Shown here: one piece after another, positions 27,001 through 33,000 of the stretch
Position numbering within the stretch: position 1 is the stretch's first letter
Layout of the letters: each line of letters begins with the position of its first letter
From: Candidatus Woesearchaeota archaeon
GTDB taxonomy: Archaea > Nanobdellota > Nanobdellia > Woesearchaeales > JACPJR01
Direction of reading: 5' to 3'
DNA: 64,000 nucleotides
Assembly: GCA_016187565.1 (NCBI GenBank)
Contig: JACPJR010000015.1
Span: 1 to 64,000, forward strand
Made by a program: the position numbers

Positions 27001-30000
27001 ATCCACCAGGAGGGATCACTTTAACAATATCATCCAGATTTCCATCAATCTTTTTTTTGATAAGTTTAGCAGCATCACTTGCCTTTTCCCTTCCAGGCAC
27101 AAGGGTTATGATCTTCTTGCACTGTTTTTGGACAGCACTAACTGGACCTCCGATGATCTGGCTGTTCTGATCAAGTCCAATGGCAATTTTCACACTACCA
27201 TGAAGGTAGGTTGTCTTTCCATAGATCATAAAGGCACCCTTTCCCATGTATTCTCCTGCTTTGGTTTGCTTGGAGACCTGATCTGGTGCAACATAAAACA
27301 CATTGAGGCTTGCCAATCCCTGACGCCATGCCCGTGAGTAAGTGGCAGTAGCATCTGCAACCTCTTGAAGCGTTATTTCTGTTGGCTTTTCGTCCTTTAC
27401 TTTAATCACAAAAAAGGGGCTTCCTGCCATATCTGTATGAAAGACAATATCATTTTTTTCCGTGTGTTTTTTAATGACAATCTCGTTGGTGGTTGCATCC
27501 CGCCCTCCGATACAAAGGAATCCTTCTGAGCTGTAAAACCATCGAAATTTTTCATACCATTCCTGTTTCTTCAGCACATTTCCTTGCTTTTGTTGTTCAA
27601 GTGTTTTTGCAAAGGATTGTGTCTTTACCTCTTTTTCTTCCTGAATCTTCTTTAATTTCTCCTGGGTAATAGCCAGTGCTTTGAGCGCACCCTCTCGCTT
27701 TTTCCTTGCTTTCTTTGCTTTTTCAAAATATGCTGCAGCATTTTCTTCTACTGATTTCCTAATATCTAAGGTAATGGTTAACATGGTTCAATGAGTGGCT
27801 CTTCCCATTTTTTAGGGGTGCACACCAGAAGTCGGTTAAGGACGTCGCTTTTAATGATGGGAATGATCTCAACTTTTTGAGGAGCTCCTAAATCAGGAGG
27901 GATGAGGACTTCTTTTTTCAGTCCATCACCAGGCTCAATGCTTGAATCCTTAATGACCTTACTAAATGGTTCATCATGCTGGCCAAGTATATAGAGCTTG
28001 AGCCCATGAATTTTGACAACCCCATCATTTTTGAGAACAAATTGAAGTCGAGTATCAACATCAGTGAAGTAGCAAATCTTAACATCATCAGAGCTTTCTT
28101 CAACCGTAAGCTGAACTCCCTCACAGAGATCGCTCGGAATTGCGGTAAAGGGACTTTCAGTGTCATCTGAAGGCATTTTTGGAGCCCAGTTAATAACCGT
28201 TGCTCCGAGCACAATGGCAAAGAAGATAAGCAAGATCGTAGCAATTAATGGGCTCACCCCTCTCTTGTAAAAGAAAATTGCAGGCATATTTCTTTGATCA
28301 GAGAGTATCTTTATAAAATTTTCTACAGTGGCCCTGAGCGTAAAGTTGCGGAATCTTTTTATAGATCGGTTACTTTATTCTTTTGTCATGGACATTGTCT
28401 CCCTAATCCTGGTGGTCATAGGACTTTGTTTATTTGAGACCATTAGTAGTATTGATAATGCTATTATCAATGCAGAAGTTGTTGCAACCATGCAAGAAAA
28501 AGCACGGCGATGGTTCTTGTTATGGGGTCTTCTTATAGCAGTGTTTGCTGTTCGTGGACTACTACCCTGGCTGATTATATGGGTAACCACGCCTTCATTA
28601 GGCCCTTTGGGAGCATTAACTGCTACCTTCAGCAATGATCCAAGTGTAGCAGCAGCTATAGAACGATCTGCGCCCGTCCTTTTAATTGGGGGTGGTGTTT
28701 TTCTTATCTTCCTCTTCTTCCATTGGCTTTTCCTTGAACCAAAGCATTTTGGATTACCTGGAGAAAAGTTTTTTTCCCGTTATAGCCTCTGGTTCTATGC
28801 TATTGTCTCTATTCTCTTGATGGTTATTGTCTGGTTTGCTGCTCAGAAAAACGCTTTAATGGCATTTTCTGCAGTTGTCGGGTCAACCGCATTTTTCATT
28901 ACCCATGGCTTTAAACAGAACGCAGAACAGGCAGAAACAAAACTCATGCAAAAAGGAAGTTTATCAGACGCCAGCAAAATCCTCTACCTTGAAGTAATTG
29001 ATGCCACATTCTCGATTGATGGGGTTCTGGGAGCTTTTGCCTTCACGCTGTCTGTGCCCCTTATTTTAATCGGTAATGGCCTTGGTGCTGTTGTGGTACG
29101 ACAGATTACCGTAGGCAATGTCGAACGGGTAAAGAAGTACAAATACCTGAAGAATGGAGCTATGTACTCTATCCTTTTTTTGGGTCTTATCATGCTCTCT
29201 GACAGCTTTGGCTTTCATATCCCAGCTTGGCTCACTCCGGTAATCACCTTTATCGTCATTGGATACTTTTTCTGGAAATCAAAGCAGGAAATAAAGACGC
29301 AAAAGCTTTAATAGTACCTTACTTTTAAGGAGATAGCATGGAAATGACGCAAGAACAACTCCAACAGATGAGTCCTGAACAGATCAAGGAGTATCAGAAG
29401 CAAAATTGTATTTTCTGTCATATCATTGCAGGAAAAGTGAACTCTAAAAAAGTCTATGAGGATGAGATGAGTATTGCTATTATGGATATTAACCCTGCAA
29501 ATCCCGGTCATGTTCTTATCATTCCTAAAGAGCACTATGTCATCATGCCTCAGGTTCCAGAATATGAGCTACGTCATTTGGCCATGGTGACCAAGGCTAT
29601 GTCAAATGCATTACTCCGTGCCCTTAAAGCCCAAGGAACCAATGTCTTTATTGCCAATGGTATGGCTGCAGGTCAAAAAGCGCAGCATTTCATGGTTCAT
29701 CTTGTCCCTCGTAAGGACAATGATGGACTAACAAATTTTACTATTCCTGAAAAAAGGATGAGCCCAGAACAGATTGCTGATGTTCTTAAACGCCTTAAGC
29801 CCAAGATCAATGAAGTCTTCGGACTTGAAAAAACTGGAGAAGAGGAGGTTTCCTTACAAGCTCCGGTTGTGGATGCAGAGTTTGAAGAAGAGCCTGAAGA
29901 GGAAGCGCGTCAAGAGGAATCATCACCTCAGCAGTCACCAAAACAATCCACCAAGGTTAGCGAAAAGGATGTTGATCTTGACAAGATTAGTAATCTTTTC

Positions 30001-33000
30001 CTTGGAAGACAATAAAAAACGATCACAACGACCATGGCAAATGACACATGCACCTTCTGTAGTATGGTAGCAGGACATTTTCCTGCTCAAAAAGTTTTTG
30101 AGAACGACACGGTCATGGCTGTCCTTGCACCAGCGCCAGCAGCTTATGGACATCTGTTAGTCATGCCCAAACAGCATTTTCCCATCATTGAACAAGTACC
30201 CGATTTTGTTATGGGAGAGATGCTTTTAGTTTGTAATAAACTCTCGACTGCTGTTTTCGAGACTCTGGGATCAACAGGTACAAATATTATCGTACAGAAT
30301 GGTATTGCTGCTGGACAAACTGCTGCCCATTGCATGGCTCATATCCTTCCGAGGCGTGAAAATGACAACCTTAACTTCCAATGGCAGCCACGCCAGCTTT
30401 CTGAAGAACAGCTCTCAACTGTTGAATTACAGATCACTGAATTTACCCAAGGCATAGGTCATTTTGACAAGAAAGAGCCAGAAAAAGAGCCTGAAGCAAC
30501 GAGTTCTCCACCGTCATCTCCACAGCCAACCAGAGGAGAAGAACATGGACACGATCATGGTCATAAGCACGACGAAGAAAGCCTGCACGAAGACGAAGAA
30601 GAGGAAAACTATATTCTCAAACAGCTCCAACGCATTCCGTAGCAGATATTAGTAAGAGTGAGATTCGGCTGGATATCTACTCAACCGGTTTTCCTTCTAT
30701 CTTCATAGTTCCATAGACCAATTGTGCTTTCTTGGGGATCTTGATGGTAACTCTCTGCACTTGGCCTGCCTCAGTAAATAATAACATGCTTTTTTTCATG
30801 CTACAAACCCCAAAGAGGGTGGTAAATTCGATAAAGTTTATATGCCTTTCTGAAAAATAACCGGAAATATTTCAGAGAGTAAGTATTATTACTACAAAAA
30901 TGAAGAAATAGGCCCTCAAAAAAAGGATGGGCCCGCTGAGACATTCACGATAGAAGACAGTTCTTCCATTGCTTTGAACTCAGGACCACTCGATTATCAG
31001 TCGAGCGCACCAGCCAGACTATGCTACGGGCCCAAGAAGGAAGGGGGAAACCAAAGCCATTTTATAAAGATTATGCTTTTTCCAAAAACTTTATAAATGA
31101 TAACCCATTTGCATGTGTACAGAGAGAGAAAAGACGAAAAGGCATATTCTTTTTTCTCGGCCCTTGGAGGGCGTGCCTTGCATTTACCATGAAGATTAAG
31201 CCATTATTACCTACGCTACGCGAACGTAAACGGTATTTGGTCTTTCAAATCCATTCTTCATCCCCACTTAAGGATGTAGGAGCGATACAACAGGCACTCA
31301 TAGAGGCCCTTCTGCGATACCTTGGCGAGAAGCAGCTTGCAAAAGCAGGTGTTTCTTTTTTAGATGACCATTATCATCTAGGGAATCAAGAGGGAATCAT
31401 TCGCGTGAACCACACGTCGGTTGATGAAGTCAGAGCAGGTTTGTGCTTTGCTCAGCAGATAGGAACGGTTCCTGTTATATTCCACATCAAAGGAGTAAGC
31501 GGCATTTTAGCAAAGGCTCAACACAAATATTTAAAAACTCGCTCATAACATTCACCAAGTTTACCAAAAGAAGATAAAAATGATTGAGGATAAAAACGGA
31601 GGTCCTTTACTATGCAACCAATGACACATCAGGTAATGGGATATGATCGGGCCATTACCATGTTCAGTCCAGACGGAAGACTCTTACAAGTTGAATACGC
31701 CAAGAAAACCGTCAAACAGGGAAGTACGGCAATTGGTCTTACCTGTAGCGATGGTATCGTTCTTGTTACGGATAAACGTATTGTTGATACCTTGGTTGTC
31801 CCTGAATCTGTTGAGAAAATTTTTAAGATTGACGATCATATTGCAGCAACTGCCTCGGGTATACTTTCAGATGCCAGAATTCTCGTCGAACGTGCACAAA
31901 TAAAAGCACAGCAACACCAAGTAACCTTTGACAGTCCTACTGACACCTTGAGTATTGTTAAGGATATCTGTAATGTCAAGCAGTTCTGTACACAAACCGG
32001 TGGCTTACGACCTTTTGGTGTTTCGTTAATCATTGCTGGTGTTGATCAAGGAAAGCCGCATCTCTTTGAGACCGATCCTACAGGGATCTTCTTCGAGTAC
32101 AAAGCAACGGTTATTGGCGAAGGAGAAGTAGAGATAGAAGACATTCTCCATAAGGAATACCGAGAAAACATGACCTTAGATGAAGGAATGAAACTTGCAG
32201 TAAAAGCACTGGTAAAGACTCTCGATAATAAATTTGGTGTTGAACGATTGGATTGTGCCTATATCACGGCAAAAGAGGGTATGTTTAAACGACTGAGCAG
32301 GCAAGAACTTGATAATGTCTTAAAACAGATGAGAAAGAAGGATCAAATAAAATGAGAGAAGTATTTGACCACGAAAAAGTTTCCCTGAATGTCGCACGAC
32401 TAAAAAAACAGGGACACATTTTTGAAATTGTTATTGATCCAGACAAAGCAGTTGAGTTTAAGGAAGGCAAAAGTGTTACGCTTCCTGAAGTGCTGAAGGC
32501 AGAGAAGGTTTATACAGATGCTCGGAAAGGGTTGCTTGCGTCTGAACATCAGATGCAGGAACTTTTTGAAAGCACTGATCCAATGGTTGTGGCTCAGAAG
32601 ATTCTTAAAGAAGGGGAGATTCAGTTTACCGTTGAACATAGAGCTAAAGTCCGCGAGGATAAATTAAAACGGATTATTGCCCTCATCAGTAGAAATGGTG
32701 TGGATCCTAAAACCCATTTGCCTCATCCACCACAACGGATTGCAAATGCCTTGGAGGAAGCAAAGGTTCATGTGCAGGAATTGAAATCAGTCGAGGAACA
32801 AATCCCGGAAATCGTCAAAAAGATTAGGGTAGTACTTCCTATCCGATTTGAAATGAAACAACTTGCACTGAAGATCCCAGCACAATACGCGCCAAAGACC
32901 TATGGGTCTATCAAGCAGTTTGGAACTTTACTTAGAGAGGAATGGGAATCAGATGGTTCTTTTGTATGTACGGTTGAAATCCCTGGAGGTATGGAATCAG

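Follow-up and report, generated by a model that had tools for sequence, protein, structure and literature searches.

The described proteins closest in fold and zinc ligands to the pair reported here are HIT proteins of the Hint branch (B. subtilis Hit, 1Y23 and 3IMI; C. albicans HINT, 6IQ1), which bind zinc and carry a clamping C-terminal helix. HINT1 uses His112 as its nucleophile, with Trp123 reaching over from the other subunit of the dimer (PMC5382946), and HINT1 H112N, without the nucleophile, has solved substrate complexes according to the entry titles of 5KM6 and 5IPC. Heterodimers with an inactive HIT paralog are known: avian HINTW (ASW, WPKCI), a paralog without the catalytic part, for which a heterodimer with HINTZ is reported (PMC4053838), and yeast Dcs1–Dcs2 of the DcpS branch, in which Dcs2 suppresses Dcs1 activity (PMC5336285). 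In HINTW–HINTZ one subunit is active and inhibited, whereas the two subunits described below both appear to be dead, and are encoded adjacently, often fused and strongly conserved across an archaeal order; Dcs1 is an active enzyme, and its pair differs from ours in branch and domain architecture. The genome-wide survey's note had called a conserved pseudo-HIT heterodimer undescribed. This holds for an archaeal case and for a case with two dead subunits, neither of which was found in the literature searched (main texts only, including few subscription papers and a term search of bioRxiv 10.64898/2026.05.13.725050), but not for inactive-HIT heterodimers in general.

The window analysed is a stretch of 64,000 nucleotides of contig JACPJR010000015.1 from a Candidatus Woesearchaeota archaeon (GCA_016187565.1). 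Gene A (29338..30015, plus strand, 225 aa) was characterised from its ORF, Pfam matches, homolog counts and a structure model as a pseudo-HIT subunit with nucleoside pocket and zinc site kept, and gene B (30034..30642, plus strand, 202 aa), which follows after 18 nt, as a pseudo-HIT subunit whose pocket has decayed but which retains the tail, the residues of the rim and the helix and strand that form the dimer. Both belong to the HIT superfamily by profile score (PF01230, cut-off 21.5: A, E 1.6e-19, 70.8 bits; B, E 3.7e-17, 63.2 bits) and by fold search, and are 39% identical to each other over 127 aa. The motifs read directly from the DNA, HFMVH in A (29686–29700) and HCMAH in B (H99-C-M-A-H103, 30328..30342), bear out the survey's claim of two adjacent HIT genes without the nucleophilic middle His, and the third HIT, on contig C22, retains HIHVH as it had stated. 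Beyond these three genes, PF01230 matched nothing in the genome except two parts of a single 335-aa frame on contig C4, which we read as GalT-like. The curated NCBIfam cut-offs for HinT and PRK10687 (130 and 206 bits) were reached neither by A (72.2 and 42.4) nor by B (50.8 and 28.1). The GalT branch is characterised by HxHxQ within one double-domain chain; A and B are two separate genes with HFMVH and HCMAH, and no GalT family was among their Pfam matches. PF04677 (CwfJ) gave no match for A or B at E 0.001 and was above cut-off in two of 11 homologs scanned, and PADLOC gave only a generic HIT match (ThsC). A promoter and terminator scan ended at chance level, and no RNA holder was listed.

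Among the 120 best matches of A and the 120 best of B, a recount agreed with the survey in every figure: HxHxH was absent from both sets (0/120 each), HxMxH was present in 117/120 homologs of A, an R[ILV]P end in 108/120 homologs of B, and five homologs (P0003–P0007) were A–B fusions. Residue counts given below refer to 81 A, 80 B, 81 singletons (33 triad-intact and 48 nucleophile-less) and 34 canonical HITs, all best-hit samples, the singletons being selected in part by tail pattern. The middle His was found in 0/81 A and 1/80 B, against 34/34 canonical HITs, and the Hint-branch motif HxHxHxx with its nucleophilic middle His is thus carried by neither A nor B. In the altered triad region of A (Q113-K-A-Q-H117-F-M119-V-H121, 29674..29700), position 119 is Met in 74 of 81 and His in none; the middle residue of B is Met in only 27 of 80, i.e. 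no conserved Met, and the third His of its degenerate triad is present in only 22/80. HAHIH occurs in the A half of a single fusion, P0357.

The residues of a Hint-type site are divided between the two proteins, with the DINP/GH pocket in A and the C-terminal Trp in B. Five nucleoside-pocket residues (Asp, the His51 equivalent, Asn, Gln and the third His) occur together in 81/81 A but 3/80 B, so that the pocket typical of the Hint branch is found in A and not in B. The segment D50-I-N-P-A-N-P-G-H58 (29485..29511) has its Asp and His in 81/81 A, and its Asp in 30/80 B; D50 is presumably the ribose-binding Asp, and H58 is read as the His51 equivalent. H58, N107, Q113 and H121 are invariant in A, and other canonical pocket residues are replaced by K/R, Met, Ala and Ile/Val. 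Position 114 is K/R in 79/81 A versus 0/34 canonical HITs (Lys in 88 and Arg in 32 of the 120 homologs). The zinc ligands, CxxC plus His and the first triad His, are present in 81/81 A and 69/80 B, and zinc in CaHINT is coordinated by this same set of four (PMC6354057). Unlike Hint-branch HITs, which have a nucleophilic His and a single type of subunit, the A–B pair carries extra helices at the N-terminus, long charged linkers and C-terminal tails that are conserved. In the sequence sets and the model, A starts with a helical extension (residues 1–23, MSPEQ..YQKQ, 29338..29406), which is common to many single-gene orthologs and missing in B and in canonical HITs. Following an acidic linker, A carries the C-terminal motif DLDKISNLF (LD[DE]IAxLF, 29974..30000; 72/81 A), which is not at the end of fusions P0003–P0007. 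An Ada-like Cys/His tail pattern was seen in 6/81 A (best Pfam E 0.005, below cut-off), and STI1/ubiquilin-like repeats, also below cut-off, in some A proteins.

The conserved elements of B are of a different kind. The helix end and strand start from F75-E76 to G82-T83-N84 (30256..30285) contain FE in 79/80 B and 0/81 A, and W117 of the C-terminal strand (30382..30384) is likewise Trp in 79/80 B and 0/81 A, and lines up with the GFGAVWK Trp of 1Y23 and 3IMI. The C-terminal tail YILKQLQRIP (Y-L-x-K-Q-L-x-R-[IL]-P, 30610..30639) is likely a docking motif; an R-x-P end is found in 70/80 B and 55/81 singletons, versus 0/81 A and 0/34 canonical HITs. The invariant C-terminal tail that had been proposed for the pair is therefore a property of B and not of A. 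Triad-intact singletons hold both residue sets (pocket 30/33, Trp 32/33, FE 28/33), and A and B appear to be subfunctionalised duplicates of one HIT gene. The survey's note had described the tandem pair across Woesearchaeales; the family as a whole is class-wide, with such a gene in most sampled Nanoarchaeia (the phylum sample comprises this one class), and in other orders it is a single, tailed gene in which the nucleophile is mostly lost and HxHxH is kept in some. Atlas clusters are 100% archaeal, mainly Nanobdellota or Woesearchaeota. Gene conversion between them was not seen, the identity being 0.384 within genomes and 0.385 across genomes.

These two proteins probably form, in our view, a zinc-bound 1:1 A–B heterodimer with one composite site, which would bind and not cleave a nucleotide-bearing ligand, and which would dock through the R-I-P tail of B. 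A heterodimeric non-catalytic binder had already been put forward in the survey's note and is the best reading of nucleophile loss, conservation and fusion; it had to be modified in that the copies are unequal and only A has the full pocket. A has kept D50, H58, N107, Q113 and H121 and gained K/R114 and M119, and B has kept F75-E76, T83-N84, W117 and the tail. In a HIT-type dimer, T83, N84 and the W117 strand of B are predicted to face the pocket loops of A, and W117 likely caps that pocket across the dimer. The ligand would be an NMP-X species, either a signalling nucleotide or some nucleotidylated molecule; plain AMP is probably not the ligand, because the pocket Phe and Val are also replaced. 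The tail of B would then dock on a partner protein.

The A model (pLDDT 81) has 3IMI and 1Y23 as closest folds (Foldseek E about 1e-10). The predicted A+B complex scored 0.90, against 0.03 for the best of three controls, on a scale where 116 of 157 solved complexes and two of 215 mismatched pairs attained the mark, counts that are only roughly valid here, and this pass may stem from resemblance to HIT homodimers whose structures are solved. Runs agreed in at least 77% of their contacts, and the partner pLDDT was at least 73. The predicted dimer is formed via the long helix and the central strand, as in Hint-branch HITs, and also involves the W117 strand of B; A N107 contacts B T83/N84, and A A111 contacts B N84. 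In this prediction part of the conserved rim of B adjoins the pocket of A, which suggests one composite site. The tail is not named in the predicted complex and is placed with low confidence in the fusion model, and is thus uninformative either way. An inter-chain covariation between A104 and B86 (F with F in 0/80) was at the top of the mutual-information ranking and a predicted contact, but was not significant on the tree, where it represents about two changes.

Alternatively, the HIT dimer might be a ligand-free scaffold that only displays N-terminal helices and C-terminal tails, the pocket of A being kept for folding. This is an unlikely reading. In its favour, two orthologs, L237 and L238, have lost the GQ loop and the first His and keep the N-terminal extension, the RIP tail and the adjacency to a peptidase gene described below; because of these losses, and because only 10 of the 48 nucleophile-less singletons have all five pocket residues, the pocket appears dispensable in part of the class. 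Very degenerate B copies, moreover, retain no more than the helix and strand of the interface, the Trp and the tail. Against a mere folding role, however, all five pocket residues are kept in every A, yet B, 39% identical, folds without them, and the new pocket residues of A at positions 114 and 119 are fixed.

It is improbable, but conceivable, that the pocket of A cleaves or transfers nucleotides by a changed chemistry, using water or another nucleophile with the aid of H58, H121 and K114. The invariance of H58, H121, N107 and Q113 would fit this, as would full-triad orthologs that are the sole strong HIT match of their genomes (G157, G175, G140, G163, G180 and G229). On the other hand, the alternation of Lys and Arg indicates that residue 114 is no nucleophile, a bulky Met would fill the attacking position, and HINT1 catalytic-pocket variants including His112Asn gave no rescue of yeast (bioRxiv 10.1101/2023.12.01.569336). 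The fold is still able to carry the catalytic residue, since the middle His is kept in 12 of 13 singletons of one clade and in one fusion A half. The initial trees suggested that the nucleophile was lost once and cleanly, with triad-intact singletons basal (SH-aLRT 87 and 95), but this was not robust: when the motif columns were taken out together with two long rows, the intact clade (96) was nested among dead sequences, with family support of 79. From these trees, either one loss and a regain or two losses may have taken place.

Separate A and B homodimers, sharing merely an operon, are highly improbable. HIT proteins are normally homodimeric and single-gene orthologs must self-pair, but an AA dimer would be without the Trp cap and the FE rim, and a BB dimer without the pocket. 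Gene order and repeated fusion also favour 1:1 pairing of A with B. Among 66 GTDB loci (72, less six bacterial HITs), 64 have A followed by B, with start–stop overlaps (median gap −4 nt). A hand count of 49 genomes of the order, at least 90% complete, gave 42 tandem pairs, one fusion, two with A at a contig end, two with single genes and two without a tailed member. Two-domain HIT proteins without the middle His numbered 20 among 144 new representatives, and most were A–B-type fusions. In the trees, the halves of fusions group alongside A and B sequences in several places. The model of natural fusion P0006 (pTM 0.86) overlays about 200 residues of double-HIT chains of the GalT/Apa2 type and of CwfJ domains of spliceosomal Cwf19/CWF19L2: GalT-like 1Z84 (Z 18.3, rmsd 2.6, 210 aligned), 1GUP (Z 16.9), spliceosome ILS chain 8RO1_L2 (Z 13.2, rmsd 4.9, 202 aligned), 6ID0_U (12.6) and 4I5T (10.8), identity of these matches being only 9–15%; the A–B fusions arose separately, within Woesearchaeales. 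GalT and Apa2 are active enzymes; the overlaid spliceosome chains are presumably CWF19L2/Cwf19, without the HIT nucleophile. CwfJ domains contain conserved Cys/His residues, which Drn1 requires for intron turnover (PMC4105757).

There is very little to be said for A and B being dominant-negative regulators of the active HIT of the genome. HINTW offers a precedent, lacking the catalytic motif (PMC4053838) and, according to a title cited there, inhibiting the Z copy by heterodimerization, and an intact HIT is also present in most pair-bearing genomes; however, in three genomes of 97–100% completeness (G100, G009 and G003) the other HIT matches read were distant HxHxK types only, and A and B are linked to each other and not to the third HIT, the fusion partner being another dead HIT. 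Least credible is a cofactor role for the exosome, proteasome or RNase P, the operon next to which the survey had placed the pair: Pop5, psmA, SBDS, Rrp4, Rrp41 and Rrp42 do follow on the same strand in this window, but a 40-codon ORF and an intron-split tRNA-Ile, both on the minus strand, intervene between B and Pop5, and none of these genes was found in the 66 related loci (54 with at least 2 kb and 46 with at least 4 kb downstream), so that the context is incidental. The tail of B is not an HbYX motif, which also counts against such a role.

The conserved neighbour is instead a class III prepilin (signal) peptidase gene, on the 3' side of which the HIT gene lies convergently. With the peptidase as anchor, a convergent HIT gene was found in 21/25 genomes of other orders and 12/28 of the same order, and the peptidase was beside 0/47 other-HIT loci; in this genome it lies on contig C27, away from A–B. 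Because this convergent arrangement extends across the class, a type IV pilus biogenesis component is a tentative candidate for the partner of the A–B heterodimer, on a weak inference. The genes are convergent, not co-transcribed, and their adjacency may reflect an inherited gene order. In the main text of PMC13705601, checked for archaeal type IV filaments, the word 'histidine' occurs 0 times. The tail is not a by-product of overlap with the peptidase gene, since most loci have a B with an R/K-x-P end, whereas a peptidase gene lies within 1 kb at only 25/66. Loss of the tail may track divergence or separation of the peptidase: nine genomes of five families, possibly kin, fit, and G108 and G209 are contrary, so that the relation is suggestive only.

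A more far-reaching and improbable proposal is that the family is a near class-wide nucleotide reader, which passed from active homodimer to dead homodimer, dead heterodimer and fusion, senses a nucleotide signal or nucleotidylated protein, and, acting through the R-I-P tail, governs the class III signal peptidase and the biogenesis of type IV pili, and thereby attachment to a host or the uptake of DNA. If functional, the peptidase link would give a first handle on pilus regulation in these symbionts. Nanoarchaeia have minimal genomes, and retention of the family in most of those sampled after loss of the catalytic residue suggests a core function hidden by the annotation 'HIT family protein'. 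All stages can be seen in living genomes, from the homodimer through the asymmetric heterodimer to a fused double-HIT chain of GalT/CwfJ architecture, and the A–B family is thus a clean test case for the origin of pseudoenzymes and of pseudo-dimers with one site. On viral contigs, three distant HIT loci were detected.

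The two HIT genes of the window, A (29338-30015, + strand; 225 aa) and B (30034-30642, + strand; 202 aa), are separated by 18 nt and carry HFMVH and HCMAH, respectively, at the triad position, while HIHVH is retained in the HIT of contig C22. The claim of the genome-wide survey's note that both genes lack the middle His and that a third HIT keeps it is therefore correct, and its homolog counts were reproduced: HxHxH in 0 of 120 homologs of A and 0 of 120 of B, HxMxH in 117 of 120 of A, the R[ILV]P end in 108 of 120 of B, and five A-B fusions. Both proteins exceed the Pfam HIT cut-off and score far below the NCBIfam HinT cut-offs. 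A and B belong to the HIT superfamily, yet fail the defining test of Hint hydrolases. The closest homologs carry Woesearchaeota or Nanoarchaeota labels, and many records titled "uncultured Methanosarcinales" are nested among the A/B homologs in the tree.

Gene B follows gene A in 64 of 66 related GTDB loci (the 72 returned minus six bacterial HITs), the median gap being -4 nt. A hand count of the 49 Woesearchaeales genomes of at least 90% completeness gave 42 tandem pairs, one fusion, two A genes at a contig end, two single genes, and two genomes without a tailed member, in agreement with the survey's claim that the tandem pair is conserved across this order. Two HIT domains were found in 21 of 144 new representatives, one of which (P0484) looks unrelated, and at several points in the tree the halves of the fusions group with A and B, respectively. 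A and B are one unit. A second, fused A-B paralog exists in several genomes (loci L216-L220, L224, L225, and L232), standing alongside the split pair in at least five (G043, G019, G253, G089, and G241). This single-chain paralog of some Woesearchaeales is 300-370 aa long, has no CxxC in its B half, and its tail is altered to about EIxxAIxxI.

Conserved residues were compared among 81 A, 80 B, 33 intact (middle His kept) and 48 dead (middle His missing) singletons, i.e., single-gene orthologs of A/B, and 34 canonical HITs. All four zinc ligands, which match those described for CaHINT (PMC6354057), are present in 81 of 81 A and 69 of 80 B. The five pocket residues D50, H58, N107, Q113, and H121 occur together in all 81 A but in only 3 of 80 B, whereas the C-terminal Trp is found in 79 of 80 B and in none of the A proteins, with identical counts for the FE motif at the helix end. 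A has, in addition, fixed changes of its own: Met occupies the nucleophile position in 74 of 81, Lys/Arg follows GQ in 79 of 81 vs none of the canonical HITs, and the conserved Phe and the conserved Val/Ile of the base pocket are each found in 0 of 81. In the intact members of the singleton set, which was partly filtered by tail pattern, the pocket set and the Trp/FE set are both present. The C-terminus of B reads Y-L-x-K-Q-L-x-R-[IL]-P, with R-x-P as the end in 70 of 80, and this tail (within residues 188-202) is likely to be a docking motif. The A protein ends in LD[DE]IAxLF in 72 of 81 cases, a motif absent from the fusions P0003-P0007. An Ada-like Cys/His domain, with a best Pfam E of 0.005 (under the cut-off), ends some A proteins (P0090, P0381, P0418, P0433, P0452, P0455, and P0478; loci L046, L075, and L095), and STI1/ubiquilin-like helical repeats are found in others (L223, L231, and P0401).

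There is little doubt that A and B work without His-type catalysis, and a ligand probably sits in the pocket of A. With somewhat less confidence, we favor a zinc-bound A-B heterodimer with one composite site. Such a site would keep a nucleotide-bearing ligand uncleaved, and the ligand state would be relayed to a partner through the tail of B and the N-terminal helices of A. HINT1 H112N, which according to the titles of structure entries holds substrates, is a model for such an uncleaved ligand. A ligand-free scaffold is unlikely, given the invariant five-residue pocket set of A. Altered chemistry at the same site is less probable still.

The A model shows a HIT monomer with a pair of helices at the N-terminus and a disordered linker; its closest folds are 3IMI and 1Y23. 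The model of a natural fusion, P0006 (pTM 0.86), overlays GalT-like chains with Z of 17-18 across some 210 residues; for spliceosome ILS chains, which we take to be Cwf19/CWF19L2, Z is 11-13. The predicted A+B complex scored 0.90 against 0.03 for the best control, a value that indicates likeness and not proof of binding because HIT homodimers have already been solved. Of 157 solved complexes, 116 attain the mark for this score, as do 2 of 215 mismatched pairs; these rates apply only approximately to the present case. At least 77% of the contacts agreed between runs, and the partner pLDDT did not fall below 73. The predicted interface includes B 113-117, A 51-59, and A 107-113, with T83 and N84 of B contacting N107 and A111 of A, and this predicted geometry fits the conserved rim of B lying beside the conserved pocket of A. 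In HINT1, the nucleophile is described as His112 and the leaving group as bound across the dimer by Trp123 (PMC5382946); B W117 lines up with the Trp residue present in both 1Y23 and 3IMI, and we infer that it is the counterpart of Trp123. At the two-fold axis, residue 104 of A lies opposite residue 86 of B; none of 80 pairs has Phe at both positions, a pattern that rests on about two events. A and B very probably form a heterodimer; separate homodimers, familiar from solved HITs, are very unlikely beside the paired genes and natural fusions.

Inactive HIT partners are already known, namely HINTW (PMC4053838), Dcs2 (PMC5336285), and CwfJ domains, whose Cys/His residues are described as functionally required (PMC4105757). 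The survey's claim that a conserved pseudo-HIT heterodimer is undescribed thus stands only in part: an archaeal pseudo-HIT, or a HIT with two dead subunits, was not found in the literature searched, which included few subscription papers and no supplements. The observation on A and B itself is real. That A and B inhibit an active HIT, for which the HIHVH protein of C22 could be named, is most improbable next to their pairing with each other.

The family spans the class Nanoarchaeia. A class search with the A profile identified, in other orders, single genes combining the N-terminal helices of A with the Trp strand and R-x-P end of B, and a looser search of 30 previously negative genomes gave a likely ortholog in most. 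These likely orthologs include reduced forms (L237 and L238) in which the GQ loop and the first His are gone but the extension and the RIP end are retained. The middle His is absent from most singletons of GTDB genomes; some, such as the one at L138:5426-5983, retain the full triad, six of them being the sole PF01230 match of their genome. Within Woesearchaeales, two genomes (G015 and G016) carry a single dead gene. With all columns included, the trees supported a single family (SH-aLRT 99-100) and placed the nucleophile-less sequences in a single clade (87 and 95). Upon removal of the motif columns, the family support fell to 79 and the intact clade nested among dead sequences, so that there may have been either one loss of the nucleophile with a regain or two losses. 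B forms one clade irrespective of column choice (95-99). A and B cluster with singletons devoid of the nucleophile (84-90), so the nucleophile was, judging from these sequences, probably lost before the A/B duplication. The A half of one fusion, P0357, carries HAHIH and nests among A sequences; this intact triad may have arisen by reversion or as a patch taken over from a canonical HIT.

Of 20 singleton loci, 17 have a convergent gene for the class III (A24) prepilin peptidase within 1 kb, and so do 14 of 21 additional orthologs. Among the 66 pair loci, 25 have the peptidase gene within this distance, against 0 of 47 loci of other-HIT controls. Viewed from the peptidase, the 3' neighbor is a convergent HIT gene in 21 of 25 genomes of other orders, topping all neighbor clusters (runner-up, 11 of 26 loci); in Woesearchaeales this holds for 12 of 28 genomes, and uppS on the 5' side is equally well kept (15 of 25). 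In the window's genome, the peptidase is on a different contig from A/B, namely C27 (about 23575-24510). The convergent orientation excludes co-transcription and the linkage may be an old gene order; a functional link is doubtful. In Nanobdellati, type IV filament genes are described as mostly scattered and of Epd-like type (PMC13705601). RadA (14 of 20), RPA (10), CysRS (9), and a HerA-like ATPase (7) also recur near singletons. In a recurring arrangement (L138, L140, L145, L147, L152, and L155), the genes for a HerA-like ATPase, RPA, RadA, and prepilin peptidase follow one another in the same direction, in many cases accompanied by a small unannotated membrane protein; the arrangement looks like a cluster for DNA uptake and recombination. 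At L226 (1423-3396, - strand), one 658-aa frame appears, by eye, to join low-molecular-weight phosphatase-like, intact HIT, and GAPDH-like parts; the fusion may be genuine or a product of misassembly.

The survey's note places the pair just upstream of the RNase P-proteasome-exosome operon, a neighborhood that is not conserved: Pop5, psmA, SBDS, Rrp4, Rrp41, Rrp42, and the upstream DUF475 gene were found in 0 of 66 related loci (at least 2 kb of downstream sequence in 54, at least 4 kb in 46), and a minus-strand 40-codon ORF and a minus-strand tRNA-Ile(GAU) lie between B and Pop5. These surroundings are incidental, and an exosome or proteasome role, suggested by that position, is scarcely credible. 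The 40-codon ORF (30677-30799, - strand) is convergent on B and downstream of the tRNA. The tRNA-Ile(GAU) (30928-31033, - strand) has a 31-nt T-loop intron at 30972-30942, flanked by a bulge-helix-bulge as read by eye (TTCA/TGAA helix, two 3-nt bulges). It was missed by ARAGORN, which calls an intron-less version, and by Rfam at the gathering score; no other tRNA-Ile was found in the genome by ARAGORN. The Pop5/Rpp14 ORF as called (31021-31548, + strand) overlaps this tRNA and its Pfam match begins at residue 71, so that translation probably begins at the ATG at 31189 instead. A 492-aa ORF (36143-37621, - strand) with several helix-turn-helix-like repeats adjoins the exosome operon; its GC content is, by eye, above that of its neighbors, and it was possibly acquired.
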